This document shows, in pieces, positions 27,534-63,894 of a DNA stretch of 64,000 nucleotides. Source of the DNA: Spirochaetota bacterium (GTDB lineage Bacteria; Spirochaetota; UBA4802; UBA5550); assembly GCA_024276015.1 (NCBI GenBank), contig JAJRXZ010000004.1:20216-84215 (forward strand), written 5' to 3'. Numbering within the stretch: the stretch's first letter is position 1; every line of letters begins with the position of its first letter. The notes below the pieces were generated by a model that made no database searches, was not told the DNA's origin, and worked only from the letters and a program-made list of their open reading frames with translations. The translations under genes and the position numbers were made by a program.

Positions 27534-27542
27534 CTTTTTTAT

Positions 27543-29958: not shown

Positions 29959-29962
29959 AGAG

Positions 29963-31003: not shown

Positions 31004-31017
31004 AATCTCTCCAGTAA

Positions 31018-31602: not shown

Positions 31603-31603
31603 G

Positions 31604-32359
31604 TTATGATCCCCTCATCGGTTTTATTAAATGTGCTGAAAGGAGAAAGACAATTTCTGACATTTCAATAACAGCGCCGAGAATATCTCCTGTTGTTCCG
31701 CCTATTTTTTTCTTTACGTAAGTTGTGAATAAGAGAGTGAAAATGATTGCAGGGATAATTAAAAGAGGCCCCCTAATTCCCAGCATGGCAGTACCTGCTG
31801 CCGCTGTAAGGGCAGTGGATATTATTATTTCTCTGATCCCGGTATTGTTTATATAGGCAGTGCCAAGGCCTTTTTTCTTACCTGCATAGCTGGAAATGCC
31901 GGAACTCCAGGAGATACTCATTCGTGATACCGCAGGCATTAAAATTATTATATATAAATTTGAACTAATATTGAGGGACATTATAAGCATTGTTTTTGCT
32001 AAAATCGTTAAAATGAGCGCCAGCGTTCCGTTTGTGCCTATTCTTGAGTCTTTCATAATTTTTAAAATTTCGTCTGCCGGCCTGTTGCTGGGGATTCCGT
32101 CAAATGTATCTGCAAGGCCGTCCATGTGGAGACCCCCGCTGATCAAAATTTCGGCAATTACCACTGAGAGAGCGGAAAGAGCGCCTGCGCCCGTTTTATT
32201 GAACAGAAGAAAAATTACGCATAACATAACTCCGATGATAAAACCGATTACCGGCGCAAAAATAATCCCCTTTGCAAAATGGGTGTCGTCAAATTCTATT
32301 TTGACCGGTACCGGGATCCTTGTGAAGAACTGCAGCTGTAACAGAAAGCTTCTTATCAT
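31604..32359 (-). CDS. cobS: Adenosylcobinamide-GDP ribazoletransferase (cobalamin synthase) CobS
   Basis: Polytopic membrane protein with the CobS fold. Confidence 0.88.
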   Translation of the reverse strand: MIRSFLLQLQFFTRIPVPVKIEFDDTHFAKGIIFAPVIGFIIGVMLCVIFLLFNKTGAGALSALSVVIAEILISGGLHMDGLADTFDGIPSNRPADEILKIMKDSRIGTNGTLALILTILAKTMLIMSLNISSNLYIIILMPAVSRMSISWSSGISSYAGKKKGLGTAYINNTGIREIIISTALTAAAGTAMLGIRGPLLIIPAIIFTLLFTTYVKKKIGGTTGDILGAVIEMSEIVFLLSAHLIKPMRGS

Positions 32360-32377
32360 GTAATTCGCTCCTTTGGT

Positions 32378-32938
32378 TTACCCTTTGATCTTTACCGGAA
32401 TACCGGAAATCATCAGATAAACTTCGTCGGCGCTTTGCGCAACCGTCTGGTTGGACCTGCCTGCAACATCTCTGAAGTATCTGCCCAGCGGTGCTGCAGG
32501 AACAATGCTCATGCCCACTTCATTGGAAACAATTATAGTTTTCCCTTTAAACTTTTTTGCAGATATAATGATATTCTGTATTTCCGATTCTATTATTTTT
32601 TCGGTTTTTTTTGCGGATTCGGAATTTATGTTTTCCTCTTCCATGCCATTCTCAATGATCATGAGGTTTGAGATCATAATGGTTAAGCAGTCTAATAAAA
32701 TATAACCTGTATTTTCATCAGCCTTCGAGATAATAGAAGCGATGTTTTTGTAGGACTCAAATGTCTGCCAGTTACTGTTTCTTCTTGATCTGTGTATTTT
32801 TATTCTCTCTTTCATCTCTTCGTCAAAGGGTATGGCAGTTGCAATATATACGACATTATCATGCGCATTTAACATACTTTCGGCAAAGGTGCTTTTCCCG
32901 CTTCTTGCTCCGCCTGTAATGAATACTATTTTGCCCAT
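32378..32938 (-). CDS. cobU: Adenosylcobinamide kinase / adenosylcobinamide-phosphate guanylyltransferase CobU
   Basis: MGKIVFITGGARSGKS is the P-loop. First gene after the riboswitch. Confidence 0.9.
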   Translation of the reverse strand: MGKIVFITGGARSGKSTFAESMLNAHDNVVYIATAIPFDEEMKERIKIHRSRRNSNWQTFESYKNIASIISKADENTGYILLDCLTIMISNLMIIENGMEEENINSESAKKTEKIIESEIQNIIISAKKFKGKTIIVSNEVGMSIVPAAPLGRYFRDVAGRSNQTVAQSADEVYLMISGIPVKIKG

Positions 32939-33059: not shown

Positions 33060-33250
33060 GGCAGGGCTCAATGTACAGGCAGGTCTTCTGGCTTACGGAT
33101 CACTCTACTTGCTGCGCCTTCCCATAAGACTTGATAATGACTTACAGTGGCATTCTGCAGCGTTCGTTCCCGATTACAGCGGCGGGCCCGCACCCGAATT
33201 TCACGGGTTTCACTTTTAATCCCATAATGGGAACCTGTACACTATATTAC
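33060..33250 (-). promoter_or_regulatory. Cobalamin (AdoCbl) riboswitch
   Basis: The minus-strand sequence contains the conserved blocks GTGAAA..CGGG, GCCCGCCGCTGTAA, GCCACTG, GGGAAGGCG and the B12 box GTAAGCCAGAAGACCTGCC (plus-strand 33078-33095). Located upstream of cobU. Confidence 0.92.
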
Positions 33251-33444
33251 ACAGTTATCTGAACATGTGATTTATATCTCTCAATTGTCAATAAAAAATA
33301 TATTTATTTTATGATGTTCCGGTTTCAATGAGAGGGTAGTAGAAGGAATTTGTTCTTTAAAATAATAAAAGAAACTACGTATTAATGCTTATTTACTTGA
33401 TAATAAGAATTATGTAAATTATAATTGCTGTAATATTCAGGTCA

Positions 33445-38099: not shown

Positions 38100-39512
38100 A
38101 TGGCTAAACAAAACAGAGCTCTTCTGGTTGAAGGCAAAATAGGCAAAACTCTTTTTTATATGTCACTGCCCATGATTGTTGGAATTATAGGCATGGTATT
38201 ATTTAATCTTGTTGATACATATTTTGTGGGACGTCTCGGTGCGGATGAACTTGCTGCAATCAGTTTTACATTTCCAGTGATTTTTTTGATCGGCAGTATT
38301 ACAATGGGACTGGGAATAGGAACATCGTCGGTAATATCCAGGGCTATCGGCGAAGGGAATAACTATAAGGTTCAGCGTTTGACAACAGATTCAATAATTC
38401 TTTCAATTATTCTATCGGCAATATTTCTTCTGGCCGGTCTGTTAACCATCAGGCCGCTTTTCAGGCTGATGGGAGCAACTTCTGAAGTTTTGCCGCTGAT
38501 TGAAGAGTATATGTCTATATGGTATCTTGGTATGCCCTTTGTAATTATTCCAATGGTAGGGAATAATGCCATCAGGGCAACCGGGGATACTAAGACTCCC
38601 GCATTAATAATGTTTACAGCAATTGTTGTAAATATTACTCTCGATCCTCTGCTGATATTCGGGCCGGGCCCTTTCCCGAGGCTGGAACTGAAAGGAGCCG
38701 CTATAGCAACGGTTATTGCAAGAGCCGTAACCATGATAGTTGCATTTTATGTACTCTATAGAAGGGATAAAATGGTTACCTTTGCAAAACCTGAAATAAA
38801 GGATGTTATGGGCTCATGGAAAAAGATATTGTATATAGGTCTCCCCGCAGCCGGTACAAATCTTATAATACCTCTTTCGATCGGTATTATTACCCGTCTC
38901 ATATCGCAGTATGGAAAAAATGCTGTGGCTGCCTTTGGAGTAGGATCAAAGGTTGAGATGTTTGCAATGGCTGTTATTATGGCTCTCTCTTCTGTTCTTG
39001 CTCCCTTTGTGGGTCAGAACTGGGGCGCTGAAAAGATCGGAAGGATCAACAGGGGGATTCGCATAAGTCAGTTTTTTTCTTTGATCTGGGGGGTGGCGCT
39101 TTTTTTTCTTTTTCTGTTTATGTCGGACCGGATAGCCGGTATTTTTAATGACAATGTTGAAATTGTAAATTTAACGTCGCTCTATTTGATCATTCTCTCT
39201 GTCAGCTACGGATTTCAGGGTGTCCTGAGATTGTCAGGATCTGCATTGAATGCGCTGAATAAACCTCTGCCCTCTGCGGCGCTGTCCATTCTGCAGATGT
39301 TTGTACTTTATATCCCTCTGGCTTTGATCGGATCAAAGATGACAGGTATTAAAGGTATTTTCGCAGCAGGGGCAATTGCAAATATTGCTGCCGGGAGCGC
39401 TGCATTTTTGCTGTTAAGGCGTTTCACCACTTCAAACGGGGCGGGTGATAGGGGTGCAGATGTGATCTCTGAAGCCGATATTTTCGGCCGGAAATCGGAC
39501 GATCTTTTATAA
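38100..39512 (+). CDS. MATE family efflux transporter
   Basis: 12-TM protein. N-terminus (MAKQNRALLVEGKIGKTLFYMSLPMIVG) is typical of MATE/NorM. The first ATG at 38055 adds an implausible leader. Confidence 0.88.
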   Translation: MAKQNRALLVEGKIGKTLFYMSLPMIVGIIGMVLFNLVDTYFVGRLGADELAAISFTFPVIFLIGSITMGLGIGTSSVISRAIGEGNNYKVQRLTTDSIILSIILSAIFLLAGLLTIRPLFRLMGATSEVLPLIEEYMSIWYLGMPFVIIPMVGNNAIRATGDTKTPALIMFTAIVVNITLDPLLIFGPGPFPRLELKGAAIATVIARAVTMIVAFYVLYRRDKMVTFAKPEIKDVMGSWKKILYIGLPAAGTNLIIPLSIGIITRLISQYGKNAVAAFGVGSKVEMFAMAVIMALSSVLAPFVGQNWGAEKIGRINRGIRISQFFSLIWGVALFFLFLFMSDRIAGIFNDNVEIVNLTSLYLIILSVSYGFQGVLRLSGSALNALNKPLPSAALSILQMFVLYIPLALIGSKMTGIKGIFAAGAIANIAAGSAAFLLLRRFTTSNGAGDRGADVISEADIFGRKSDDLL

Positions 39513-40199
39513 TGCCTGCCCCTTCTTAATATGAGATATCTTTATTCTTATATTCTTTGCCCGGAACGTGATCAATTTGCTGTTTTTTATTTTCAGCAGG
39601 TCATATTCCAAAAATGTTCCGTGTCTGCTTTTCTCAGGAATAATTACGCGTAATTTCGATGTGGTGTGGATCCTTCCGATACCTTTACATACATGACACT
39701 GTGAATCCCTGCCGTAACAGATGGGGCAGTGCATTCTCGCAGGCAGTTCGATAAAGGCAATTGCCCCTGTCTGAGCTTCCTCCTCGGTAATTAATATTTC
39801 AATATCCTGTCCGATATTATTGAGTATTTCATCTCTTTTCATTTTTTTCCTGAGCAGCCGAGCCTTGAGCATTCTCTTTAATGATGTTGAGTATTTTATT
39901 CTGCTGCCCGGTATTACAGGCAGTATTTCTTTTTTGCTGTTTACCATTATTTTTTTAAATAGCTGGTTGTCATATTCCTCTCTCGAATTACTGTCGGAAA
40001 GAATTCTGTGGCCTGTTATTAAAGATTCGATCAGTTCAATAGCATTATCCGGGCTTTCTTCGGAAGTGTCAGGGTGATAACGTTTAATGAGAGTTCTGAA
40101 GGCAGAATTTATTTCATCTTTTCCCGCGTTATAGGGTACATTTAAAATGCTGTAATAATCTATGAGATTACCGTTTCTGTCGCAGAATTTATTATCCAT
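39507..40199 (-). CDS. J-domain (DnaJ-like) protein with a single CxxCxGxG zinc-finger motif
   Basis: J-domain (DYYSILNV…RYHPD). CPICYGRDSQCHVCKGIG motif. Confidence 0.7.
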   Translation of the reverse strand: MDNKFCDRNGNLIDYYSILNVPYNAGKDEINSAFRTLIKRYHPDTSEESPDNAIELIESLITGHRILSDSNSREEYDNQLFKKIMVNSKKEILPVIPGSRIKYSTSLKRMLKARLLRKKMKRDEILNNIGQDIEILITEEEAQTGAIAFIELPARMHCPICYGRDSQCHVCKGIGRIHTTSKLRVIIPEKSRHGTFLEYDLLKIKNSKLITFRAKNIRIKISHIKKGQAL

Positions 40200-40204
40200 A
40201 GTAA

Positions 40205-40606
40205 TCAATATAATGTAATGTAAGGTTTTAGTAAACAGCAAAAAAAGTATAATTTAATATTTTCGTCTGGAATATATTGGGTCATGCATATTACACGGTG
40301 GGCAACTTCAAAATAGTCGCCCGAACCTCCCATTACAAGAATTGACGATATTCCCAAATCGGTATAGAGCTGTTTGATTTTATCTATACTGCTTTTTGAA
40401 GAGAATGTCTCTTCGGGGAATTTAGACAGTTTCTGTGAAACTCTGACTCTGATCCGGCTGGGAGTTGCAAAGGGGTCCCCCTGAACATGGTCAATATACA
40501 GTGTAAAGAATTCATCACGGTAAGTATCTTTAATGTTTTTGTATGCTTTATAGCTGCGGTTATTAATTTTTAATATTGTTGATTTTAATTCGTCAAAGCG
40601 TTTCAT
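40205..40606 (-). CDS. Hypothetical protein (133 aa), possibly a fragment
   Basis: ORF 5 nt upstream of the J-domain gene. Contains …IDHVQGDPFATPSRIRVRV…, which I recall weakly from a predicted ABC-class ATPase family of ~550 aa. If correct, this is a truncated gene. Confidence 0.3.
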   Translation of the reverse strand: MKRFDELKSTILKINNRSYKAYKNIKDTYRDEFFTLYIDHVQGDPFATPSRIRVRVSQKLSKFPEETFSSKSSIDKIKQLYTDLGISSILVMGGSGDYFEVAHRVICMTQYIPDENIKLYFFCCLLKPYITLY

Positions 40607-50700: not shown

Positions 50701-52572
50701 TTAAGCAGAGAAGCTGCTGTTATTTATATTTATAACTGAAAGGTCTTCGCTTTTTATTGCTTTTGCAAATGATTCGGACAGAGGCAGAACATTTTTTATG
50801 TAATATCTTGCGCTGTACAGTTTACCGCTGTAAAATGCCGCTTCTCTGTTGTCTGCAATGAAATTATTTACCCTTTCTTTATCTCCGGGATCTATTCTAT
50901 TGGATTCGTAGATTGAGGCAAGTTTCTGCGATGCGATCCCGGCCTGCCAGAAGAGGAGCCATGCCAGGCATATATTTCCCAGCATAGTAATAAAGGGATA
51001 GGCATTTGAAATCGGAATAAGAAATTTACCCTTTTCGCTGCATTTTGCAAAAAAGATGCCGGTCTCCGCAAGAAGGTTTATATAGGTCTGCATTTCATCT
51101 GCAATGTCTTTTATCTCTTTAATATCTTTAAATCGGGCTACGGTTTTGTTCATCTCAGATAGGAGAGTAATAAAGTATTTCCCTTTTTTCTGACCAAGTT
51201 TCCTTCCAACCAGGTCAAGTGCCTGAATTCCGTTTGTTCCTTCATAGATAGATGCAATTTTAAGGTCTCTCATAAACTGTTCCACAGGGTAATCCTGGCA
51301 GTATCCGTATCCGCCATAGACCTGCATCGCAGTTTCGGTTACCCTGAAGCCGGTGTCGCTGCAATAAGCTTTGCAGACAGGAGTCAGTATTTCCAAAAGG
51401 CCTTTCCATTTTTCATATTCTTCATGATCTTCATTCAGTATCTGTATTTTGTCAAAGCAGATCCCGCTGAAATAGATGAGCGCTCTCATGCCTTCAACGT
51501 TTGATTTCATCCAGAGGAGCATCCTTCTTACGTCGGGATGTTCAATGATAGCGACTCTGGGAGCTTCGGGGTTCTGCATGTTCATAATACTGGTCCCCTG
51601 TTTTCTTTCCGAAGCATATTTCAGCGCGTGAAGGTAAGCGGCGCCTGCTGTTCCCATCCCCTGAAGACCCACATCAATTCTTGCCTCATTCATTAGCTGA
51701 AACATTACTTTCATGCCTTTGCGTTCTTCTCCGAGAAGTTCTCCGTAGCATTCGCCGTTATCGCCAAAATTAATAGAACAGGTTGAACTTCCCCTGAGCC
51801 CCATTTTATGTTCAATTCCGCTGATAGAATAATCGTTCCTTTTTCCTATGGAACCGTCTTCATTAACAATAAACTTCGGGACAAGAAAAATTGATATGCC
51901 CTTTGTGCCGGCCGGATCGCCTTCAATTCTTGCCAGCACCGGATTGATTATATTTTCAAAAAGATCGGATTCTGCTCCTGTAATAAATATTTTCGATCCT
52001 GTGATTTTGTAGGAACCGTCAGTCTGTTTCACGGCTTTTGTTTTGAGGCTGCCCACGTCCGACCCTGCATCAGGTTCGGTAAGAGCCATTGAGCCGCCCC
52101 AAAGACCTGTATACATCTTTTCCATATATTTCTTTTTCTGTTCATCGCTGCCGAATTTTTCGATCAGATGGGCGGCGCCCACGCTGAGAAATATGTAAGA
52201 GTGAAATGCGTAATTGTGCACAAAATATTCGCATACTGCGAGATGCATTGTGTATGGGAAACCCTGTCCGCCTGCTTCAGGCGATACTGACAGCAGGTTC
52301 CATCCTCCTTCAATGAATTTTTCTTTAATTTTATGAAATGATCTCGGCACAAAAACCTTGCCGTTTTCCAGACGGCAGCCTTCTCTGTCTGCCTCCATCA
52401 TTGTGGGATAAATTTCCTCTTGGGCTAATCTCCCTGCGATATCAAGCGTCATGTCGAATTCGTCTCTGGAAAATTCGCTGTATGGGCCCCTTTTGCACAG
52501 TTCTTCTTCTATATTGAGCATTTCATAAAGAATAAATTCCTGATCCCTTTTATCAACCAATAGATTACTCAT
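50701..52572 (-). CDS. Acyl-CoA dehydrogenase (long, FadE/AcdA-like)
   Basis: 623 aa. ACAD middle and C-terminal domain motifs (…TEPDAGSDVGS…, YEGTNGIQALD). Confidence 0.85.
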   Translation of the reverse strand: MSNLLVDKRDQEFILYEMLNIEEELCKRGPYSEFSRDEFDMTLDIAGRLAQEEIYPTMMEADREGCRLENGKVFVPRSFHKIKEKFIEGGWNLLSVSPEAGGQGFPYTMHLAVCEYFVHNYAFHSYIFLSVGAAHLIEKFGSDEQKKKYMEKMYTGLWGGSMALTEPDAGSDVGSLKTKAVKQTDGSYKITGSKIFITGAESDLFENIINPVLARIEGDPAGTKGISIFLVPKFIVNEDGSIGKRNDYSISGIEHKMGLRGSSTCSINFGDNGECYGELLGEERKGMKVMFQLMNEARIDVGLQGMGTAGAAYLHALKYASERKQGTSIMNMQNPEAPRVAIIEHPDVRRMLLWMKSNVEGMRALIYFSGICFDKIQILNEDHEEYEKWKGLLEILTPVCKAYCSDTGFRVTETAMQVYGGYGYCQDYPVEQFMRDLKIASIYEGTNGIQALDLVGRKLGQKKGKYFITLLSEMNKTVARFKDIKEIKDIADEMQTYINLLAETGIFFAKCSEKGKFLIPISNAYPFITMLGNICLAWLLFWQAGIASQKLASIYESNRIDPGDKERVNNFIADNREAAFYSGKLYSARYYIKNVLPLSESFAKAIKSEDLSVININNSSFSA

Positions 52573-52767: not shown

Positions 52768-53742
52768 TTAATCCTCAATTGAAAGAAGAGGTTCCATGTC
52801 GTCAATCTGTTTTGCAACCTGAAATGTATCTCCCTTCACTGTCATCAGGGGGATATCCTTTTCCGATGCCATTGATATGATGTTTGCAGGAGGCAGAATA
52901 TCATTTGAAAGGACAATTGCCGATGTGTCGCTTTCAAGAGCGGTTAAAATAATATCGCTCCTGTCGCCGCTTGTTATGATAAGTTTTTTTTCTCTGCGAA
53001 AAAGTATATGCCTCAGCATTTCGCCGGATGACATTGCGCCAACAAGTATGTTTTTTACCACTTTGTTGAGGCCTTTTTCGCCGGCAATAATATTTGCGTT
53101 AATTCTTTCCGTTAGAAATCTTACCGTAAAGTTGTTTAATTCGTCTCTGAAGGGAATTACGCCGAGAATTTTAAAACCGAGTTCTTTTATTTCTTCAAAA
53201 CATGACTTTTTAAAATCATCAGGATAATTCACCCTGTTTATTATTACTCCGCTGATCGCACCGGTTTTACGGTTCATATATTTGTTCATATATGTCAGTT
53301 CGTCAATGATCATATCTTCATTTCCGCTGACAACAATAATAAGCTCCGCATCGAGGTTAACAGAAAGCGAGAAGGGATCCAATAAAACCGAAGCTCCGTA
53401 TGAGAGGGTTCTCCCTCCCTCAATGAATAATATGTCCTTCCCCGATCCGGCCTTTTCAGCCATTCGTATCAGTTCGTTTTTGATATTATCGTTATTATAT
53501 TTGTATTTTAATTTACAGTGGTCAAATCCGAGGGACAGTTCTTCCGGTTTGGCGCCTGAGTTGGTAATATCTGTTATAAGCCTTGAATCGGAATCAAAAT
53601 TTATTTTGCCTTTGCGGATCAGCCGGTCGCCCACAGGCTTTATATATGAACAGTTTTTATTCATAAGGGACATTATTATACCGGCAATGATACTTGTTTT
53701 GCCGGCATTGCCTTTTACTGATCCAACTACTATCCTTTTCAT
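52768..53742 (-). CDS. Pta N-terminal-like protein (BioD-like P-loop domain + DRTGG domain), lacking the phosphotransacetylase catalytic domain
   Basis: N-terminus (MKRIVVGSVKGNAGKTSIIAGI). Resembles the regulatory N-terminal half of E. coli-type Pta. No PTA_PTB domain follows. Confidence 0.55.
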   Translation of the reverse strand: MKRIVVGSVKGNAGKTSIIAGIIMSLMNKNCSYIKPVGDRLIRKGKINFDSDSRLITDITNSGAKPEELSLGFDHCKLKYKYNNDNIKNELIRMAEKAGSGKDILFIEGGRTLSYGASVLLDPFSLSVNLDAELIIVVSGNEDMIIDELTYMNKYMNRKTGAISGVIINRVNYPDDFKKSCFEEIKELGFKILGVIPFRDELNNFTVRFLTERINANIIAGEKGLNKVVKNILVGAMSSGEMLRHILFRREKKLIITSGDRSDIILTALESDTSAIVLSNDILPPANIISMASEKDIPLMTVKGDTFQVAKQIDDMEPLLSIED

Positions 53743-53754
53743 CTGTTTGTCTCC

Positions 53755-55881
53755 TTATTGGTTTGTAATAAGTATCCTTACATCAATAGCCTTTAATCCC
53801 TTTTTCTTTTCATATACCATTACCGGATTGATTTCAATATCCCTTATTTCGGGGCATTTTTGTATTATTGTACTTACTTTGATGATTGTGTCAACAACGC
53901 CTTCAATATCTTTTCTTTTACTTCCTCTGGCGCCGAGAAGAAGGGGATATGATTTGATCTCGCTGAGCATTTTTGCCGCTTATTTCCTGTTCAGAGGCAG
54001 TCCTCTGAAAGTAATATCCTTCATTATCTCAACATAGATGCCTCCGAGGCCGCACATTACAATGGGCCCGAATGATGGGTCTCTTCTTGCTCCGATAATA
54101 AGCTCAACATCGGGGTCAACCATTTCACTGACTTCAATTCCGTCAATTCTTGCGTCGCTTTTGTAGGATTTGGCATTGTATATTATTGCTTCATAGGCAT
54201 CGATGGCTTCTTCATCCTTTTCAATGTTAAGAATTATGCCTCCGGCATCGCTCTTATGGAGGATATCTCTGGAAACGATCTTCATAACAACAGGATAACC
54301 TATTTCGCCGGCAAAGGCCAGCGCTTCCTCGAGGTTATGCGCTATTTTGGCAGCAGGTATGCTGATGCCTGTACTTCCGACGATTTCTATCCCCTCGCTG
54401 GAAAAGAGGAAGTTTCGTCCCTCTGCAAGGGCATTGGTAATTATTGAATTGATCGGTTCGGTGCATATATCGGCTTCGTCAACCGAATCCGAATATTCGT
54501 CAATATATTTTTTATATTTGTATGATGCAGCCAGTGATGATACTGCATCCCTTACGTCTCCGTAAACGGGAATACTTTCTTTTTTAAGAGTTAAAATTGA
54601 GTTTTCAACTGATGCGCCGCCTACTATTGCATAGCTGATGGGTTTCCCTCTGTCAAAGTGTGTTTTACAGGTATCTCTTATCATGGGAGTGAGGTTGTGG
54701 GAATCGAATGTTGCAGTTTCGCAATAGAGAGCAATTGTAGAGTCCATATGTTTGCTCAGAGCAGGCGCAGAAAGCGCCAGGACGTAGTCCTCCGATACTG
54801 CGCCCCCGGTAATATCTACGGGGTTTTTTGTTGATCCGAAGGATGGAGTGGCAGGTCCAAAAACCTCTTTAAGTATCTCCTGGTCGTCATATAGTTCGAT
54901 CCCATACTTCTCACAGGCGTCTGTGGCAAGAACCCCAATTCCTCCGCCGTTGGTAACAATTACGCATCGGCTGCCTTTGGGTCGGGGACTTGTGGACAGA
55001 AATTTGCACCAGTTAAAAGCTTCTTCAATGCTGTCTGTCCTTAAAACGCCGCACTGTTTCATGATAGCGTCAAAAACCGCGTCTGAACCGGCAAGGGATC
55101 CGGTATGCGATGCAGCAGCCATGGCGCCTCTTTTTGACCTTCCCGATTTGATAACTACTACCGGTTTTTTCAGAGTTGCCCTTTTGAGCGTTTCGATGAG
55201 AACTTTCCCGTTTTTTACTCCTTCAATATACATAAGTATAACTTTGGTCTCGTCCTGTTCTGTCAGATATTCAAGAAGTTCGGCTTCGTCAAGGTCGGAT
55301 TTATTTCCAATGGATACTATTGCAGAAAGCCCTATGTTATCAACAGCGGTTTTACCTATCATGGCAATCCCCAGGGCTCCGCTCTGTGTGAGTATGGCAA
55401 CATTGCCCGGCATGATCTTTGATGCTGAGAAGGTCGAGTTCAGCGATGATGACGACGAGTAGAGCCCGAAAATATTGGGCCCCAGAATCCTCATTCCTGC
55501 GGATCTCGCTATGGATACGATCTTTCTCTCTTCTTCAAGGCGCCCGATTTCGGAGAATCCGGAAGTTATAATCTGGACATGCTTTACTCCTTTATCTGCG
55601 CAGTTTTGAACCGCTTACGTTACATATTGCGCCGGAATAGCAATTGAAGCAACATCAACAGCGCCTTTAATATCCAGAATATTTTTATATGCTTTTCTGC
55701 CCGAGATCTCGCCTCCTGCCGGATTTACCGGATAAACTTTGCCTTTAAAAGCGCCCTCTATTATATTTTTTAAAATTATGTGACCTATTTTCTCCCGGTT
55801 TTTTGATGCGCCGATAACTGCAATGCTTTCCGGTTCAAAAAGAGATTTAATGGCACTGTTCTTTGTTTTTATTTTGTCCAT
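53755..55881 (-). pseudogene. ADP-forming acetyl-CoA synthetase (acetate--CoA ligase, fused alpha/beta), interrupted by two in-frame TAA codons (55615-55617 and 53980-53982)
   Basis: Three consecutive same-frame ORFs (55615..55881, 53980..55494, 53755..53970). The 120-nt gap translates without stops in the same frame. All three pieces align to CoA-binding, CoA-ligase and ATP-grasp segments of NDP-forming acyl-CoA synthetases with no indels. Confidence 0.75.
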
Positions 55882-55953
55882 AGAATATCAATATACTGTT
55901 AATATGCTTTTTTTCAAAATTTTTTGTTAAGGGATGGTAAAATCCTTGATCTT

Positions 55954-56619
55954 TTATTTCTGGTCTTTTTGAACCCACAGCGTTGCTCTTTGCACAAGCT
56001 CAATGGCGCTTTTCAGGCTCAATTTTTCTTTGATATGAACTCTGTGATTTTCAACTGTTTTTATGCTTATATTTAATTTATAGGCAACCTGTCTTGTTCC
56101 CAGTCCCTGTCCTATGAGTTCAAAGACTTCAAGTTCTCTGTCCGTTAAAAGATCCACAGGAGAGCTGTCGATTCTGGATTTGCCGTCCAGCATCATGCTG
56201 AAAATTCTTGTGGCTATCTGGTCGCTCACATATATATTCCCTTTAAGAACATGGTGAATTGCTTTGATTATTGTTTCCGGAGCCTCCTGTTTCATTACAT
56301 AACCTTTGGCTCCGGCTTTCAATGTTCTTTCGGCATATATCTTTTCATCGTGCATTGATAAGACAATAATGGGCATATTGGGAAATTTTATTCTGGAGTC
56401 CTTTATAAGGTCTATGCCGCTTCTGTCTTTCAGCGTAATATCAATGATCACGAGATCCGGTTTTTTTTCCTCAAATCCTTTGAATGCATTGAATGTATCT
56501 TCCGCTTCTCCGCATACAGTGAGGTCCTTTTCATTATTGATCAACTGTGCCAGGCCTTTCCTGAAAATAGGGTGGTCTTCCACAATGAATATTTTGGTTA
56601 TGTTTTTTGCTGAAATCAT
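55954..56619 (-). CDS. Response regulator, NarL/FixJ (LuxR-type HTH) family
   Basis: Receiver domain (IFIVEDHP…DLVIIDITL). LuxR HTH (LTDRELEVFELIGQGLGTRQVAYKLNISIKTVENHR). Confidence 0.9.
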   Translation of the reverse strand: MISAKNITKIFIVEDHPIFRKGLAQLINNEKDLTVCGEAEDTFNAFKGFEEKKPDLVIIDITLKDRSGIDLIKDSRIKFPNMPIIVLSMHDEKIYAERTLKAGAKGYVMKQEAPETIIKAIHHVLKGNIYVSDQIATRIFSMMLDGKSRIDSSPVDLLTDRELEVFELIGQGLGTRQVAYKLNISIKTVENHRVHIKEKLSLKSAIELVQRATLWVQKDQK

Positions 56620-56715
56620 TAATAAATCCCATTTGTTTATATTTATGTAGATTAATGATTTGTATAAAAAGATAATTTACAGTTTTATTATTTTAAGCAA
56701 TATAATTTCTCTGAA

Positions 56716-58110
56716 TTAATTTTTTTTCAGAATACAGGTTACACTGGTACCGCCTGTATCATTTTGACCGATATTAAGAGATGAGTTGATAATACGGGCC
56801 CTGTATTTCATTATATTTATTCCCATGCCTTTCCTCCTGTCAAGAAGCTTTTCAATACCGATCCCGTCGTCTCTGACTCTTAATGTTATTTCTCCGTTTA
56901 CCTCGTTGAGCTCTACGGTAATATTTTTTGCTTTACTGTGCTTTATGGAGTTGTTAACCGCCTCCTGCGCTATGAGGAAGAGGTGTATTGCCACTATGTT
57001 CTCTTTAATTGAAACAGATTTGATATGTTCAAAATTGCATTTTATTCCGTAGAGTCTTTCAACATTATTGAGCAGTTCGTCAAGAGCAAAGATCAGGCCG
57101 TCCGCGTCGATATCAACGGGACTCAACCCTTTAACAAGCTGCCTTGTGTGGTTAATGGCTTGTGTGATATGCTCATTTATTTCCTCCAGGTCTTTTGCCT
57201 CGCTCATCAATTGTTTTGCTTCAAGTTTCTTTTTCAGTATATTTGTCATAAATTTAATTCCCACAAGGTGAGGCCCCAGCCCGTCGTGAAGGTCATTCCC
57301 TATCTGCTGTCTCTCCTGTTCGCTTACTCTGATTATCTCGCTTTCAAGGCGTTTCTGTTCGGATATGTTCATAAATGAAGCAACGCTCTTTTTAGTGCCG
57401 GGGATCATATCGGCTGTCATATATATCTCTTTGATTATGCCGTATCTGTCAATAAATCTGAACTCATAGTTTCTGGGAGCGGCAGCGGGATCAATTCTTC
57501 TCAGTTTATGATATTCGAGCATTTTTTCCAGGTCTTCTTCTGCAATAAATTCGGTCCAGCTTTTTTTGCCTTCAATTTCATCTCTGCTGTAGGCTGACAG
57601 CAGCTCAAATTCTCTGTTAACCAGTGATATTGTTGTATCTTCTTCGATAAAAATTGTTGCATTCCCGGTGTTTTCAAAGATCGTACGGTAAATCCCTTCA
57701 CTTTCTCTCAGTTTCCGGTCTATTCTCTCCCTGTACAGCGTGATTTCAATGGCGCTGTAAAGATTTTTAAGATTTATAGGTTTTACCAGATATTCATAGG
57801 GTTCGGTAATTTTATCTTTTTTCAATACGGATATTTCAGGGTATTCGATAAGATAGATAATGGGTATTTTGAAATCTTCCTTAATAGTATCAGAAAAAGA
57901 GATATTATTTGTAACTCTGTTCAGGTCGGTATCCAGCATTATCAGGTCGGGTTTGTTTTTAAATATCTCTCTGATACATTCGTCAACAGAGTCTAAAAGC
58001 GCTGTTACTTCATAACCGAGCTTATTGAGATTATTCTTAATATCTTTTGCAATATTTTTCTTTTTTTCAATTATAAGAATTTTTGCGGCATTTGTTTTCT
58101 GTTCTTTCAT
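56716..58110 (-). CDS. Sensor histidine kinase with N-terminal receiver domain, PAS, HisKA_3 (NarX/DegS-type) and HATPase_c
   Basis: H-box (ERQQIGNDLHDGLGPHL). C-terminal HATPase motifs. N-terminal REC-like segment. Confidence 0.85.
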   Translation of the reverse strand: MKEQKTNAAKILIIEKKKNIAKDIKNNLNKLGYEVTALLDSVDECIREIFKNKPDLIMLDTDLNRVTNNISFSDTIKEDFKIPIIYLIEYPEISVLKKDKITEPYEYLVKPINLKNLYSAIEITLYRERIDRKLRESEGIYRTIFENTGNATIFIEEDTTISLVNREFELLSAYSRDEIEGKKSWTEFIAEEDLEKMLEYHKLRRIDPAAAPRNYEFRFIDRYGIIKEIYMTADMIPGTKKSVASFMNISEQKRLESEIIRVSEQERQQIGNDLHDGLGPHLVGIKFMTNILKKKLEAKQLMSEAKDLEEINEHITQAINHTRQLVKGLSPVDIDADGLIFALDELLNNVERLYGIKCNFEHIKSVSIKENIVAIHLFLIAQEAVNNSIKHSKAKNITVELNEVNGEITLRVRDDGIGIEKLLDRRKGMGINIMKYRARIINSSLNIGQNDTGGTSVTCILKKN

Positions 58111-58403: not shown

Positions 58404-58463
58404 TGTCAATTGATTTTAACTGAAAAACAGTATTTTCCAGCTCAATTTAAGGAGCAATTAAAT

Positions 58464-60068
58464 ATGATACTTAAAAGTTCTATAAACAGAAATTCGCCCG
58501 AATATAAAAGCAACAGTGATGCAATGACTGCTCTTGTTGCGGATCTGAAACAGAAGGTTTCGCTTATAATTCAGGGCGGCAATGAAAAGGCGCGGGCAAA
58601 GCATACAGGCAGAAACAAGCTCCTGCCAAGGGAGCGGATCCGCCGGCTTCTCGATGCGGGCGCTCCTTTTCTTGAGCTGTCGCAATTTGCGGCATGGGGG
58701 ATGTATAACAACGAAGTGCCGGCTGCGGGGATAATTACCGGTATAGGACGTGTGGCGGGGCAGGAGTGCGTAATAATTGCAAATGACGCTACTGTAAAGG
58801 GAGGTTCCTATTTCCCTCTGACTGTTAAAAAACACCTGCGGGCTCAGGAAATTGCCGAGGAAAATCATCTGCCATGTATATATCTGGTAGATTCGGGCGG
58901 AGCCAATCTTCCTGAGCAGGATGAAGTTTTTCCGGACTCCAAACATTTCGGGCGGATCTTTTACAATCAGGCAAATATGTCGGCAAAGGAGATCCCTCAG
59001 ATAGCGGTAGTTATGGGTTCCTGTACTGCAGGCGGCGCCTATGTTCCTGCAATGGCCGATGAAAGCATTATTGTAAAAAATCAGGGAACCATCTTTCTTG
59101 GAGGCCCGCCCCTTGTTAAGGCTGCAACAGGCGAAGTTGTCAGCGCAGAGGATCTGGGCGGAGCAGATGTACACTGTCGTATCTCCGGAGTAACAGACCA
59201 TTATGCCCTGAATGACGTACATGCTCTTGGCATTACAAGGCGGATCGTGAAGAGCCTCAACAGAGTTAAACGTCCCGATCTGGAGATCCGTAAACCTATG
59301 GAACCGCTTTATGACCCGACTGAACTTTACGGAGTTGTGCCTGCGGATATACGAAAACCCTATGATGTGCGGGAGGTTATTGCCCGTATTGTTGACGGAA
59401 GCATGTTTGATGAATTCAAAAAACTCTATGGAGAAACAATGGTGTGCGGCTTTGCCCATATTTTCGGATATCCTGTGGGGATCCTGGCAAACAACGGCAT
59501 ATTATTTTCCGAATCGGCAATTAAGGGGGCTCATTTCGTGCAGATATGCTCACAGAGGGGCATCCCTCTTATTTTTCTTCAAAATATATCGGGCTTCATG
59601 GTCGGAAGCAAATATGAAGCCGGAGGAATTGCCAAAGACGGTGCTAAACTGGTTACTGCAGTGGCCTGTTCACGGGTGCCAAGATTTACCGTAATTATAG
59701 GCGGCAGTTTCGGCGCCGGCAACTACGGTATGTGCGGCAGGGGATACAGCCCCAGGTTCCTCTGGATGTGGCCTAATGCCCGTATATCCGTAATGGGCGG
59801 CGAGCAGGCGGCAAACGTTCTGGCGCAGGTAAAGCGCGACAGTATGGAATTCAGAGGGGAGACCTGGTCAAAAGAAGAAGAGGAAGCCTTTAAGAAACCG
59901 ATAAGAGAGCAGTACGAAACTCAGGGACATCCTTACTATGCCAGCGCCAGACTGTGGGATGACGGAATAATAGACCCTGCCGATACAAGGATGGTGCTGG
60001 GTCTTGGAATTTCGGCATCATTAAATGCCCCAATAGAAAAGACAAAATTCGGTATATTCAGGATGTAA
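58464..60068 (+). CDS. Methylcrotonyl-CoA carboxylase carboxyltransferase (beta) subunit
   Basis: Carboxyltransferase domain. AAGGAG RBS 9 nt before the ATG at 58464. The N-terminal region resembles MCCase beta. Confidence 0.82.
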
Positions 60069-60072
60069 TATT

Positions 60073-60864
60073 ATGAATGAAAAAACCATAATGATTGATG
60101 TTGATGAGAAGGGCAGGGCAACCGTAACTTTAAATAGGCCTGCTATGCACAATGCCTTTGACGATTCCCTTATAGCTCTGCTGACCGATGAATTAAAGCG
60201 GTTAGATAGGGACTCGAATATACGCGTTGTTGTGCTGGCTGCAAAGGGCAAGAATTTTTCTGCAGGAGCCGATCTGAACTGGATGAAGCGTATGGCCGGT
60301 TATTCCCTTGAGGAAAATCTTGAAGATGCAAAAAAACTTGCGCACTTGATGAAAACTCTTAACGGGCTGTCAAAGCCTGTAATTGCAGCGGTGCAGGGAG
60401 CGGCATTCGGCGGCGGAGTTGGTCTTGTTGCATGCTGCGATATTGTAATTGCAAGCACGCGGGCAAGTTTTTCCCTTTCGGAAGTTAAGCTGGGGCTCAT
60501 TCCTTCTGTGATCTCCCCCTATGTTGCGGATGCAATTGGCAGCCGTGCCGCAAGGCGTTATTTTCTTACAGGAGAGCGTTTCAGCGCAGAGGAAGCATAC
60601 AGGCTGGGACTGGTAAATGAAGTTGTAGAGGAAGATGAATTAAATTCTGCTGTTGAAAAGATCTGTCATATTCTTCTTCAGAACGGGCCCGAAGCGATCG
60701 GTGAGGCTAAAAAACTGATCGCCTCGGTTTCGCGCGGCAATATCGACGAGAATATGATCAACAGAACGGCTCACTGGATTGCAGAAGTGCGTGCGTCTCA
60801 CGAGGGAAGGGAAGGCCTTTCGGCATTTCTGGAAAAACGCAAACCCAATTGGATCAGAGGATAG
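60073..60864 (+). CDS. Enoyl-CoA hydratase/isomerase family protein (methylglutaconyl-CoA hydratase-like)
   Basis: Crotonase fold motifs (…AAVQGAAFGGGVGLVACCD…). Confidence 0.8.
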   Translation: MNEKTIMIDVDEKGRATVTLNRPAMHNAFDDSLIALLTDELKRLDRDSNIRVVVLAAKGKNFSAGADLNWMKRMAGYSLEENLEDAKKLAHLMKTLNGLSKPVIAAVQGAAFGGGVGLVACCDIVIASTRASFSLSEVKLGLIPSVISPYVADAIGSRAARRYFLTGERFSAEEAYRLGLVNEVVEEDELNSAVEKICHILLQNGPEAIGEAKKLIASVSRGNIDENMINRTAHWIAEVRASHEGREGLSAFLEKRKPNWIRG

Positions 60865-60868
60865 CAAT

Positions 60869-62866
60869 ATGTTCGAAAAAATATTAATTGCCAACCGAGG
60901 TGAAATCGCCTGCCGCATTATTCGTACTGCAAAAAGACTTGGAATCGGAACAGTTGCCGTTTATTCCGATGCTGATGCCTCTTCAATGCATGCTGAGCTT
61001 GCTGACGAGGCCTGCCATATAGGACCTTCTCCGGCAAGGGAAAGTTATCTCAGAGCCGATCTTCTTATAGAGGCTGCCCTGAAGAGCGGAGCAGAAGCAG
61101 TGCATCCCGGATACGGTTTTATGTCGGAAAATGCAGACTTTGCAGAGGCCTGCAAAAAAGCCGGGCTTATCTTTATAGGCCCTCCGGCACAGGCTATTCG
61201 CGCAATGGGATCCAAGAGCGCTGCAAAAAAAATAATGGAGAAAGCGGGCGTTCCCCTGATCCCGGGCTATCACGGCGAGAACCAAGAGCCGGAACTTCTT
61301 CGGAAAGAAGCGGAAAAAACAGGTTATCCTTTGATGATCAAAGCCGTAATGGGCGGCGGCGGTAAGGGAATGCGCATTGTAATGAAAGAAAATGATTTCA
61401 GCAGCGCTCTCACTGCTGCGAGACGAGAGGCAATGGCTTCGTTTGGTGACGAGAGTGTACTCCTCGAAAAATATATATCCGGACCGCGTCACGTTGAAAT
61501 TCAGGTTTTTGCGGATAATCACGGTAATGCAGTCTATCTTTTTGAGAGAGATTGTTCCATCCAGCGCCGTCATCAGAAGATCATTGAGGAGGCTCCGGCG
61601 CCCGGAATGACTCAAAAGTTGAGGGAAAAGATGGGGGCTGCCGCGGTTGATGCTGCAAAGGCAAGAGCTTATACAGGAGCCGGTACAGTGGAGTTTCTTC
61701 TTGATGAAAGCGGCAATTTCTATTTTATGGAAATGAACACGCGACTTCAGGTGGAACACCCCGTTACTGAAATGATCACTTCAGTTGACCTTGTAGAGTG
61801 GCAATTGCGTGTGGCTTGCGGTGAGAAGCTTCCCTGCGGGCAGGAAGACCTGCATATCAGCGGCCATGCTGTTGAGGCGCGAATTTACGCAGAGGACCCT
61901 TCGAATAGTTTTCTTCCTTCAACAGGAAAACTCTTTTATCTCAGTACACCGAAGGAAAGCGGGAATGTTCGTATTGATACTGGAATCAGAGAAGGGGATG
62001 AAGTGAGCATGGAGTATGACCCCATGATCGCAAAACTTATAGTATGGGATGTTGACAGAAGTTCCGCTGTTCGGAGGCTTCACAGAGCTCTCGGGGAATA
62101 TCATGCGGCCGGAGTAACAACCAACGTAGAATTCCTGCGGAGAGTAACGGAACATCCGCTTTTCAGTTCCGGCGGTTATGATACCGGTTTTATTGAACAG
62201 CATGAATCTGAACTTTTTCCTGCGCGGCAGAAAGCTCCGGATCGGATTTTAGCTCTTGCCGCATTGTATATTATGCTGAGCATAGCGCCGAATAGAGAGG
62301 ACTCCGATAATTCCGGCGATCCCTATTCCCCGTGGAATATGACCCACGGGTGGAGGTTGAACTGCCGGAGCTTTCACGAGATATCTTTTATTGACGGTGA
62401 TTCCGATGTTACTGTAAAAGTTCATTACAGGGAGAAGGGATATCAACTGGAACTGCCGTCAGGAGAAATGGCGGTATGGGGACGGCTGGATGGCGAAGGT
62501 ATTGTCAATGCCGATCTCGGAGGGGCATTGACAAAAGCCAGTGTTATCCGAAACGGAGCTGAGATCATATTGATGACATTGGGGGCGAGATATCGTCTTA
62601 TTCATACAGATCCCTTTGCGCAGTTTGAAGAGCAGGACGATACCGGCGGCAGTCTGACGGCTCCCATGCCCGGGAGGATTATTGAAGTTATGGTTAAGGA
62701 AGGAGACGCAGTAAAAAGAGGAGACTCCTTATTGACTATGGAAGCTATGAAAATGGAACATACAATAAAAGCCCCCGGTGACGGGAAAGTGGTGGAACTG
62801 AAATACGCCGTTGGCGATCAGGTAAACGAAGGAGAAAAACTTCTGATATTTGAGGTTAATGAATAA
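60869..62866 (+). CDS. Methylcrotonyl-CoA carboxylase alpha subunit (biotin carboxylase + biotinyl carrier domain)
   Basis: MFEKILIANRGEIACRI… is the biotin carboxylase N-terminus. C-terminal EAMKME biotinylation motif. AGAGGA RBS. Confidence 0.88.
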   Translation: MFEKILIANRGEIACRIIRTAKRLGIGTVAVYSDADASSMHAELADEACHIGPSPARESYLRADLLIEAALKSGAEAVHPGYGFMSENADFAEACKKAGLIFIGPPAQAIRAMGSKSAAKKIMEKAGVPLIPGYHGENQEPELLRKEAEKTGYPLMIKAVMGGGGKGMRIVMKENDFSSALTAARREAMASFGDESVLLEKYISGPRHVEIQVFADNHGNAVYLFERDCSIQRRHQKIIEEAPAPGMTQKLREKMGAAAVDAAKARAYTGAGTVEFLLDESGNFYFMEMNTRLQVEHPVTEMITSVDLVEWQLRVACGEKLPCGQEDLHISGHAVEARIYAEDPSNSFLPSTGKLFYLSTPKESGNVRIDTGIREGDEVSMEYDPMIAKLIVWDVDRSSAVRRLHRALGEYHAAGVTTNVEFLRRVTEHPLFSSGGYDTGFIEQHESELFPARQKAPDRILALAALYIMLSIAPNREDSDNSGDPYSPWNMTHGWRLNCRSFHEISFIDGDSDVTVKVHYREKGYQLELPSGEMAVWGRLDGEGIVNADLGGALTKASVIRNGAEIILMTLGARYRLIHTDPFAQFEEQDDTGGSLTAPMPGRIIEVMVKEGDAVKRGDSLLTMEAMKMEHTIKAPGDGKVVELKYAVGDQVNEGEKLLIFEVNE

Positions 62867-62898
62867 ACCGGTTTTACCGGTTTATTCATTAATAGGTT

Positions 62899-63894
62899 TT
62901 ATTTATTAAGGATCCCCTTTTCTTTGTCGTATTCTATACCTTTATGGGGCACGGGGCCTGCATTGATAAAATTTGACCTGAGCTGCCGTCCCAGAATTTC
63001 TTCGGATTTTTTCCCCAGAGCGATCATCTTGTCAATATCAATACCTGTGGAAACACCCATCTCTTCAAACATCCCAACGAGATCTTCGGTACAGGTATTG
63101 CCGGCGTACCCTCGGTGATAATCTGCCGCGCCTGTTTTTGGCTGGCCTCCGATTGCTCCGAGAGAAGAATCGAAGTGTATAAATCCGTATGTAAGGGCGG
63201 TTAAGGAGTTTGCCACTCCCCAGCCGCGCGTATCGTGAAAGTGAACTACAACCTCTTCGGTTGTAAATCCCTCGGACAGGACATATTCGTAAAATCTGCT
63301 TACCTGTACCGGATTTGACGAGCCCGTAGTGTCTCCGAATCCTATGATAGTAGCGCCGGCATTTTTCCACCATTTGCCCAGGGCAATTGCGTCTTCGGGA
63401 GCAACGTCTCCTTTAATGGGGCAGCCGAAAGATGTGAGAGCCCATCCGAAAACTTTATGGCCCGAATCAAGGGCCAGGCGGATCATCTTTTCCGCGAGGC
63501 GTTTGTTTTCATCGTGGTTCATTCCCACATTGGCCAGGTTATGAGCTTCGCTTGTGGAAATAACGAGGACGATCTCGTCCACTCCGAAGCCCTCTTTCTT
63601 TGATGCAATTGCTCTTTCAACAGCTTTAACTGTGGTGCAGATGCCTCTGTAGTCTACATTATCCCTGCGGGGGATCCTCCTCAGCAATTCTTCCGCATCG
63701 GCAAACTGAGGGAGGTATTTAGGATGGGCAAAACTTGTAGCTTCAATTTTTGTAAAACCTGCTTCCACCATTCCTGTGATCATCTCAACCTTATGTTCAA
63801 GAGAAACAACCTTTGCTTCATTCTGAAGTCCGTCGCGGGCCCAGCATTCGCCCATGACTATTTTTTTTGGGAAGTTTATTTGATGTAATTTCAT
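62899..63894 (-). CDS. Hydroxymethylglutaryl-CoA lyase
   Basis: HMGL-like TIM barrel (…ECWARDGLQNE…). Convergent with the MCC-alpha gene. Confidence 0.82.
   Translation of the reverse strand: MKLHQINFPKKIVMGECWARDGLQNEAKVVSLEHKVEMITGMVEAGFTKIEATSFAHPKYLPQFADAEELLRRIPRRDNVDYRGICTTVKAVERAIASKKEGFGVDEIVLVISTSEAHNLANVGMNHDENKRLAEKMIRLALDSGHKVFGWALTSFGCPIKGDVAPEDAIALGKWWKNAGATIIGFGDTTGSSNPVQVSRFYEYVLSEGFTTEEVVVHFHDTRGWGVANSLTALTYGFIHFDSSLGAIGGQPKTGAADYHRGYAGNTCTEDLVGMFEEMGVSTGIDIDKMIALGKKSEEILGRQLRSNFINAGPVPHKGIEYDKEKGILNK

Follow-up and report, generated by a model that had tools for sequence, protein, structure and literature searches.

In-frame stop codons in otherwise conserved prokaryotic genes have been described as common and mostly short-lived (Belinky et al. 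2021, PMC7918605), and Salmonella proteogenomics has revealed low-level translation of nonsense-interrupted 'pseudogenes' (Feng et al. 2022, PMC9122581), with readthrough there mainly at UAG with C beside the stop and not at UAA-G (PMC9122581). The gene at 53755..55881 on the minus strand of the 64-kb stretch of DNA analysed here (the window), from an uncultured spirochaete-like bacterium, resembles these nonsense pseudogenes in being a conserved gene interrupted by in-frame stops only, with constrained flanks and in a single lineage. It differs in carrying two stops rather than one, both TAA and both with the same GCGG 3′ context, and TAA is the least leaky codon, whereas the translated cases documented in Salmonella (PMC9122581) are mostly UAG. 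The case is an ordinary one, a nonsense-interrupted gene of an already known kind: most likely it is a recently formed pseudogene or null allele, a consensus error is possible but less likely, and new recoding is unsupported. The best solved relative of the encoded protein, a 4-hydroxybutyrate-CoA ligase (ADP-forming) fused in a single chain (8wzu; full-length match, 8wzu residues 6–696, E = 1.3e-144), shares its five-domain architecture and invariant SHTG histidine loop. In comparison with 8wzu and with the two-subunit Korarchaeum ACD 4xyl, the frame is broken, twice, only here.

Sequence and translation identify 53755..55881 (−) as a single 708-codon frame encoding an NDP-forming acyl-CoA synthetase, with exactly two internal stops, both TAA; reading through them gives 708 sense codons. 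As the original prediction held, three minus-strand ORFs of 88, 504 and 71 aa lie in this common frame (Table 1), the 504-codon one being terminated by premature stop 2. The two TAA codons are, also as proposed, the sole interruptions, and alignment with 27 full-length homologues revealed no internal indels peculiar to this gene. The 120-nt stretch between stop 1 and the next ATG, said to translate cleanly, is of coding quality, and its 40 residues, which lead up to Met131, keep the family-invariant C94, A95, V99, I105, S107-G108-F109-S110-E111, G113 and E118. Two long ORFs (53282..54037 and 54848..55462) lie antisense to the gene on the plus strand; neither matches any family, and both were treated as shadow ORFs.

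Table 1 Features of the interrupted synthetase gene and its immediate neighbours (window coordinates).
Feature	Position	Strand	Description
Hybrid REC-PAS-HisKA_3 kinase	56716..58110	−	Part of upstream two-component system
Upstream two-component system	55954..58110	−	Same strand as synthetase
REC-LuxR regulator	55954..56619	−	Part of upstream two-component system
Putative sigma-70-like promoter	55890..55917	−	TTGAAA-16-TATATT; ends 8 nt before synthetase ATG; consensus match only
N-terminal fragment ORF	55615..55881	−	88 codons followed by premature TAA; initial two thirds of CoA-binding Rossmann domain
Premature stop 1 (TAA, codon 89)	55615-55617	−	GCGG directly 3′
Stretch between stop 1 and next ATG	55495..55614	−	120 nt, in frame, coding quality; AVQNCADKGVKHVQIITSGFSEIGRLEEERKIVSIARSAG; invariant SGFSE motif
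Central ORF	53980..55494	−	504 codons; end of CoA_binding, Succ_CoA_lig, Ligase_CoA_2, ~2/3 of ATP-grasp_5
Premature stop 2 (TAA, codon 634)	53980-53982	−	GCGG directly 3′
Last sense codons and natural terminator	53755..53979	−	Last 74 sense codons of ATP-grasp_5; invariant D681, E683, N685, P686
Third ORF	53755..53970	−	71 aa, from translation
Natural TAA terminator of synthetase gene	53755-53757	−	From sequence
Downstream partner gene	52768..53742	−	Intact; AAA_26 + DRTGG; resembles N-terminal part of phosphotransacetylase

Pfam matches run across both stops: CoA_binding/CoA_binding_2 (residues 19–136) crosses stop 1 and ATP-grasp_5 (residues 483–705; full profile, 1–221/221) crosses stop 2, so homology continues past each stop, far beyond chance. 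With Succ_CoA_lig and Ligase_CoA_2, which are also matched (domain E-values 5e-11 to 2e-73), the domain set of the ACD superfamily (CoA_binding, Succ_CoA_lig, Ligase_CoA_2, ATP-grasp_5) is present in one frame, although TAA at codons 89 and 634 deprives that frame of the continuity needed for the full enzyme. The phosphohistidine loop of Succ_CoA_lig, S258-H259-T260-G261, is invariant in 28 sequences including this one; we take the histidine of this SHTG/SHTGS loop to be catalytic in the ACD family. The architecture originally proposed (~708 aa, NDP-forming, with CoA-binding, ligase-CoA and ATP-grasp regions) is confirmed. Acetyl-CoA as substrate is not established: the score falls under every NCBIfam equivalog cut-off (best model 4-hydroxybutyrate-CoA ligase, 589 bits vs 1300; AcCoALig_Archglob, 505 vs 1200; AcCoA-syn-alpha, 492 vs 567) and the best solved relative is the 4-hydroxybutyrate-CoA ligase, so that the assignment holds at family level only (acetate or another acyl group) and not for acetate-specific EC 6.2.1.13.

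The 88-aa (P0138) and 504-aa (P0003) fragments are predicted proteins of one 92,292-nt NCBI contig, so the stops are present in the deposited record; P0003 is 100% identical to the central ORF, and each fragment forms a cluster of one. The synthetase sequence is known from one assembly only and the species has been seen once in public data. A scan of species-representative genomes for sister strains gave a best match of ≤76% identity, two degenerate-peptide scans of JGI metagenomes gave no match to the synthetase, and protein searches with the terminal fragments recovered the 88-aa piece itself and otherwise sequences of ≤73% identity.

Orthologous codons, a comparison that the original prediction had recommended, were examined in 39 related genomic loci (identity ≥55%), 37 covering site 1 (codon 89) and 38 covering site 2 (codon 634), and every covering relative has a sense codon. 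Site 1 is occupied by Glu in 15 (GAA in 12), Asp in 13, Asn in six and Gln, Ser or Pro in one each, and site 2 by Glu in 27, Ile in nine and Thr or Met in one each. Neither the 27 aligned homologues nor these loci have a stop codon at site 1 or site 2, and none occurs anywhere within the matches of all 39 loci; among the best 120 database homologues 119 are uninterrupted (697–724 aa), the exception being P0003 itself. Relatives often read GAA GCG GTA at site 1, and GAA is the sole common homologue codon one step away from TAA; most parsimoniously, both stops would have arisen from GAA by G to T changes. For site 2 this agrees with the change proposed earlier (GAA to TAA); at site 1 the proposed CAA to TAA change, from Gln, is wrong, with Glu and Asp predominating and Gln in only 1/37 relatives.

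Relative to intact orthologues the gene carries disabling mutations, and we consider it to be a very recently inactivated copy, either a pseudogene of recent origin or a null allele picked up in the metagenome-assembled genome (MAG), with a probability of roughly 0.6. Two independent single-base substitutions, G to T in Glu codons 89 and 634, would have created the TAA codons. Translation as encoded would end after 88 residues, reinitiation at Met131 would yield a product lacking the invariant SGFSE segment and the last 74 ATP-grasp residues, and a functional enzyme would not be expected from either. This supposes that the substitutions are real and not mistakes of the consensus, that GAA was ancestral at both codons and that the gene can be dispensed with, for example because the genome has a paralogue at another locus. 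With a pair of nonsense codons in a single 2.1-kb gene and a window that is otherwise clean, the pattern looks like gene-specific decay rather than scattered error: about 55 other genes have full-length Pfam coverage without an in-frame stop or frameshift, and no in-frame stop was found in any other gene of the 64 kb. Signs of relaxed constraint, as might be expected of a pseudogene, are absent; the gene deviates at 5/191 otherwise invariant columns (range in homologues 0–9) and, in a relative-rate comparison with its nearest relative, is closer to 14 outgroups vs 12, with no acceleration. Inactivation would therefore be very recent, and the lack of neutral drift is compatible with a pseudogene only if it was extremely recent. 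The intact state of the conserved downstream partner gene also counts against a pseudogene.

Both stops sit in the heptamer TAAGCGG. The nearly identical 3′ context noted earlier holds for the GCGG following each stop, but the likeness ends there, no similarity between the two sites being found beyond the heptamer. For nonsense substitutions drawn at random within the gene, the probability of two sharing TAA plus GCGG is 112/34935 = 0.0032, and the two sites are its only one-step-from-stop codons with GCGG 3′. A plain pseudogene leaves this coincidence to chance or to a mutational hotspot, and the common context is an unexplained curiosity. Across the window TAAGCGG is not enriched (6 found vs 6.6 expected); the other four copies lie out of frame or antisense in intact genes, where they encode unremarkable residues, and 15 copies of GAAGCGG are unaltered. 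A motif-specific systematic error at GAAGCGG is not supported by these counts. The scan for further in-frame TAAGCGG, suggested for the whole genome and run here over the 64-kb window, returned none besides the two sites.

The original prediction set out a pseudogene, an error and readthrough without choosing among them; the first two survive and the third is without support. In the case of a sequencing, assembly or consensus artefact, a possible but rather doubtful explanation, the organism's gene would be intact, with GAA at sites 1 and 2, and both T calls would be wrong or would represent minority-strain variants that became fixed in the MAG consensus; they could stem, for example, from low-coverage G to T oxidative damage or from context-specific miscalling of bases at NAAGCGG (on the plus strand, CCGCTTN). 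Such an origin would fit a gene that is otherwise perfect, keeps its invariant residues and shows no rate acceleration, as well as two changes that are both probably G to T in the same heptamer, a coincidence of about 0.003 that a context-dependent error would produce, and a sequence found in a single assembly, with no near-identical fragment identified. The unaltered GAAGCGG copies, the chance-level frequency of TAAGCGG and the normal residues encoded by its other copies argue against it, and random errors would not strike one gene twice and spare the others. The base quality of the assembly looks high, given about 55 genes free of frameshifts and stops, and short-read assemblies seldom contain consensus errors of the substitution type, which also counts against an error. 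Inactivation of the gene itself remains the preferred reading.

Translation through or around the stops is much less probable. Readthrough or suppression at UAA-GCGG, with a near-cognate or ochre-suppressor tRNA inserting Glu, Gln, Lys or Tyr to give a reduced amount of full-length enzyme, is improbable; a still more specific proposal, that UAA-GCGG is decoded often enough to be useful, plausibly as Glu or Gln, and that the stops attenuate translation of an ATP-yielding synthetase instead of inactivating it while UAA otherwise remains the main terminator, is very improbable. The GCGG 3′ of both stops (p about 0.003), the absence of decay in the gene and the translated 'pseudogenes' of Salmonella (PMC9122581) are consistent with readthrough, but those cases are mainly UAG followed by C and not UAA-G (PMC9122581). 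The context at both stops also lacks the features of leaky sites (UGA or UAG, C or A at +4, or a stimulatory structure); no stable RNA structure was detected downstream of either stop in comparison with shuffled sequences (z = 0.3 and 0.8). Both release factors recognise UAA, the tightest of the bacterial stops, and UAA-G is a strong bacterial terminator; with two stops in series the loss would be multiplied. Within the window TAA ends 34/51 ORFs of at least 100 aa, seven genes end in TAAG and one of these in TAAGCG. Genetic-code reassignment was rejected, as in the original prediction, because TAA is the main terminator, and in-frame TAA occurs in the synthetase gene only. Neither a recurrence of the stops in any homologue nor a second gene interrupted in frame within the 64 kb, either of which would be expected of a recoding site, was observed. 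The gene resembles UGA-Sec, UAG-Pyl, the UGA-Trp/Gly codes and recoded phages in having an in-frame stop where homologues have a sense codon, but differs from them in that TAA is the main terminator of the window, where no recoding element or tRNA was found: the window contains no tRNA genes, and hence no cognate suppressor with anticodon UUA, and no Rfam element near the synthetase gene, its only match being a distant cobalamin riboswitch. To our knowledge, no recoding of UAA is known in bacteria.

Least probable of all is a functional split enzyme, in which each of the three ORFs would yield its own polypeptide and these would assemble, as in archaeal two-subunit (alpha/beta) acyl-CoA synthetases. 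Two-subunit forms exist in the family (4xyl chains A and B) and an ATG lies three codons past stop 2, but the breaks fall inside the CoA-binding domain (codon 89) and ATP-grasp_5 (codon 634), away from the alpha/beta boundary (Ligase_CoA_2 / ATP-grasp) near residues 458–480, and no full-length homologue is split at these codons. Past stop 1 no in-frame ATG, GTG or TTG occurs before Met131, which would cost the product 40 residues and with them the invariant SGFSE, and on direct reading a well-spaced Shine-Dalgarno sequence precedes neither of the internal ATGs.

A comparable case, which speaks for the pseudogene reading, is a homologue of the synthetase with one in-frame TAG at codon 152, otherwise intact, in two independent assemblies (L081/L082; ENA ERZ27252253 k141_2862579 and Logan SRR8554435). 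Like the synthetase gene of the window, it is a family member followed by a DRTGG partner and intact except for in-frame interruption by a stop; it differs in its single TAG, in its context (ACT TAG GTT) and in having an intact paralogue 2.2 kb upstream. Most short acd fragments on long contigs elsewhere (L083-L085) were set aside, being frameshift-shattered together with their neighbours, presumably through long-read indel noise.

On the minus strand the gene order is kinase, response regulator, synthetase, DRTGG/AAA_26 gene and acyl-CoA dehydrogenase, and acyl-CoA and leucine-catabolism genes surround the synthetase. The DRTGG/AAA_26 gene starts 12 nt past the synthetase terminator, an adjacency kept in about 45 related loci, while the two-component system is linked to the synthetase gene only in the closest relative (L017). 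The description of the synthetase as heading an operon with a dedicated two-component system was imprecise: it lies downstream of that system, and the neighbour conserved with it is the DRTGG/AAA_26 gene. Should the stops be real, the lineage would just have lost one enzyme of substrate-level phosphorylation (acyl-CoA + ADP + Pi to acid + ATP + CoA). This matters only for the metabolic reconstruction of the MAG, in which the gene ought to appear as a pseudogene and be left out of the ATP-yielding steps. Should the stops be errors, they show once more that a MAG consensus has to be checked against the reads. Wider significance would follow only if the unlikely recoding reading were true, and the value of the analysis is mainly negative, in removing a candidate recoding site. 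Elsewhere in the window, a remnant of an ABC-class ATPase (40205-40606) is another decayed gene, so the genome does carry pseudogenes.

Translation of minus-strand positions 53755..55881 gives one frame of 708 sense codons with exactly two internal stops, both TAA, for which a very recent nonsense inactivation of an NDP-forming acyl-CoA synthetase gene is the best explanation (probability roughly 60%). No private indels were found in an alignment with 27 homologues, in which all ~190 invariant residues, the SGFSE motif and the SHTG histidine loop among them, are kept. Translation, Pfam matches and this alignment all bear out the original prediction of two in-frame TAA codons that share TAAGCGG and are accompanied by no indels. 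The best 120 database matches, apart from the gene's own 504-aa fragment, are uninterrupted proteins of 697–724 aa, the nearest at just 72% identity. A single 92,292-nt NCBI contig carries both the 88-aa and the 504-aa fragment as predicted proteins; the stops are therefore part of the deposited assembly. The next gene begins 12 nt past the natural TAA, with an AAGGAGA ribosome-binding site in the gap.

Features of the interrupted synthetase gene and its neighbourhood (window positions, or residues where stated).
Feature	Position	Strand	Remark
Premature stop 1	55615-55617	-	TAA, codon 89
Premature stop 2	53980-53982	-	TAA, codon 634
Natural terminator	53757-53755	-	third TAA
CoA_binding/CoA_binding_2	residues 19-136		Pfam; spans stop 1
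Succ_CoA_lig	residues 158-295		Pfam
Ligase_CoA_2	residues 307-458		Pfam
ATP-grasp_5	residues 483-705		Pfam, full profile; spans stop 2
Hybrid kinase	56716..58110	-	first in minus-strand order
REC-LuxR regulator	55954..56619	-	between kinase and synthetase
AAA_26+DRTGG gene	52768..53742	-	immediately downstream of synthetase
Acyl-CoA dehydrogenase	50701..52572	-	after AAA_26+DRTGG gene
Methylcrotonyl-CoA carboxylase beta subunit	58410..60068
Enoyl-CoA hydratase	60073..60864
Biotin carboxylase/BCCP alpha subunit	60779..62866		86-nt overlap with hydratase ORF if TTG start used
HMG-CoA lyase-like gene	62899..63894	-

Among 37 related genomic loci, the residue at stop 1 is Glu in 15 (GAA in 12), Asp in 13, Asn in six and Gln, Ser or Pro in one each, at odds with the Gln (CAA to TAA) originally proposed here. 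At stop 2, related loci have Glu (27), Ile (nine), Thr (one) or Met (one). Several relatives carry GAA GCG GTA at the first site, so the GCG-G following stop 1 is inherited Ala-Val coding sequence. At both sites, GAA to TAA, a G-to-T transversion, would be the most parsimonious history. Translation ending at codon 89 would leave an 88-residue piece of the Rossmann domain. Met131 offers the next in-frame start, its ATG following AGGA with no spacer. A product begun there would lack the SGFSE segment, which sits in the 120 nt separating stop 1 from this ATG. Stop 2 would remove 74 ATP-grasp residues, including invariant D681, E683 and N685. Both breaks interrupt domains, whereas the archaeal two-subunit enzymes are divided at the alpha/beta boundary; a functional split enzyme is therefore unlikely.

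In the synthetase, 5 of 191 otherwise invariant columns deviate (range 0–9 in intact homologues), and in a relative-rate comparison 14 outgroups lie nearer to it than to its nearest relative, and 12 lie farther away; thus, relaxed constraint is not detectable. The damage would be either very young or not real. The latter reading, in which the consensus is in error, is the chief alternative to nonsense inactivation and the less likely of the two. The best locus in a scan of species-representative genomes had 76% identity, giving no same-species locus, peptide patterns around either stop had no matches in JGI metagenomes, and, apart from the contig's own 88-aa piece, queries of 150 residues from either end of the protein found no fragment exceeding 73% identity. 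Indirect grounds favour a real allele: the rest of the window shows no broken genes, which indicates high sequence quality, and scattered errors would not place two nonsense codons in one 2.1-kb gene. In a gene already inactivated or dispensable, a further disabling mutation would be neutral. A motif-specific artefact is unsupported, as 15 GAAGCGG copies are still intact in the window. Genuine nonsense alleles also arise in this family, as illustrated by a homologue (L081 3001..5115; ENA ERZ27252253 k141_2862579) of 705 codons, intact except for one in-frame TAG at codon 152 (FSAT*VLRGNVAIL). Of the three options originally offered, pseudogene is therefore favoured, error stands as its main rival and readthrough finds no support. 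A nonsense-interrupted gene is a known kind of feature, and this one is best given a pseudogene annotation until it can be checked against reads.

A plain pseudogene model leaves a single feature unpredicted, the shared TAAGCGG. With both stops repaired to GAA, enumeration gave 265 possible nonsense substitutions, and two drawn at random from these share the stop and next four bases with a probability of 112/34935 = 0.0032. Apart from codons 89 and 634, no codon in the gene that lies one step from a stop has GCGG next, and GCG is the gene's rarest Ala codon (9/64). The match is a post-hoc coincidence that may be due to chance; it would also be explained by a local mutational hotspot, by an error that depends on context or by a context with a function. 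Readthrough or other recoding of TAA is very improbable. TAA terminates 34 of the 51 window ORFs of at least 100 aa, consistent with the original view that the genome has not reassigned it; TAAG terminates seven and TAAGCG one. A search of all six frames for long open segments separated by just one stop, with Pfam on essentially every window gene, identified no further gene broken by a stop or frameshift, and no further TAAGCGG-interrupted gene, in the 64 kb; the one other damaged gene is a short ABC-class ATPase remnant (40205-40606). TAAGCGG occurs six times in the window (6.6 expected), the remaining four copies lying antisense or out of frame inside intact genes and encoding ordinary residues. 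The window has no tRNA genes, no Rfam elements were found near the synthetase gene, RNA structure 3′ of the stops is no more stable than that of shuffled sequences (z = 0.3 and 0.8), and the two sites have no similarity outside the heptamer. UAA, which both release factors read, is the least leaky bacterial stop. In Salmonella proteogenomics, translated nonsense ‘pseudogenes’ mainly had UAG with an adjacent C (PMC9122581). Two serial UAA-G stops are therefore unpromising as a site of useful readthrough.

The TAG of the L081 homologue is also present in an independent Logan assembly (L082; SRR8554435). This homologue is immediately preceded by an intact paralogue and an AcetylCoA_hydro-GNAT gene. 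In three further loci (L083-L085; ENA ERZ25039527, ERZ25039502 and ERZ25039543; contig_NNN records) the synthetase and its neighbours are split into several overlapping, frameshifted ORFs, presumably indel noise of long-read assemblies. With neighbouring genes equally shattered, these are not comparable to the present gene, and call for caution when counting ‘split’ members of the family.

The kinase and regulator precede the synthetase, which thus does not head the operon as first proposed; among related loci they are linked to it only in the closest relative (L017). Of 80 related loci in Spirochaetota, Desulfobacterota and archaeal MAGs, ~45 have the DRTGG gene directly downstream of the synthetase; the pair is a widely conserved two-gene module. 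The DRTGG partner (loci L001-L049; ~324 aa) resembles the N-terminal regulatory part of phosphotransacetylase. A sigma-70-like consensus match ends 8 nt upstream of the synthetase ATG. Another (TTGACA-16-TACAAT, 53867..53894, minus strand; 11/12 consensus matches) lies within the synthetase 3′ end, ~125 nt before the DRTGG gene begins, and, as a consensus match only, could drive the partner independently of the broken gene. The synthetase scores under all NCBIfam equivalog cut-offs and its best solved relative is ADP-forming 4-hydroxybutyrate-CoA ligase; the acetyl-CoA substrate first assigned is a family label rather than demonstrated specificity. The neighbourhood is one of acyl-CoA and leucine catabolism (methylcrotonyl-CoA carboxylase subunits, enoyl-CoA hydratase, HMG-CoA lyase), with the leucine-catabolism cluster (58410..63894) divergent from the kinase gene.

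Two unusually long plus-strand ORFs (53282..54037, 251 aa; 54848..55462, 204 aa), in DNA of ~40-44% G+C, run antisense to the synthetase and DRTGG genes; neither has a Pfam match and both are treated as shadow ORFs. The 133-aa ORF at 40205..40606 (minus strand) matches only ABC_N (2-69/162) and ABC_ATPase (208-253/283), looks like what is left of an ‘ATPase of the ABC class’ gene after an internal deletion, and is overlapped by a DnaJ-domain ORF (39507..40241). A cobalamin riboswitch (33061..33253, minus strand; 118 bits, full model) is followed downstream by a cobU-cobS-cobC-cobT-cobQ-cobD-aminotransferase cluster (26448..32938, minus strand).
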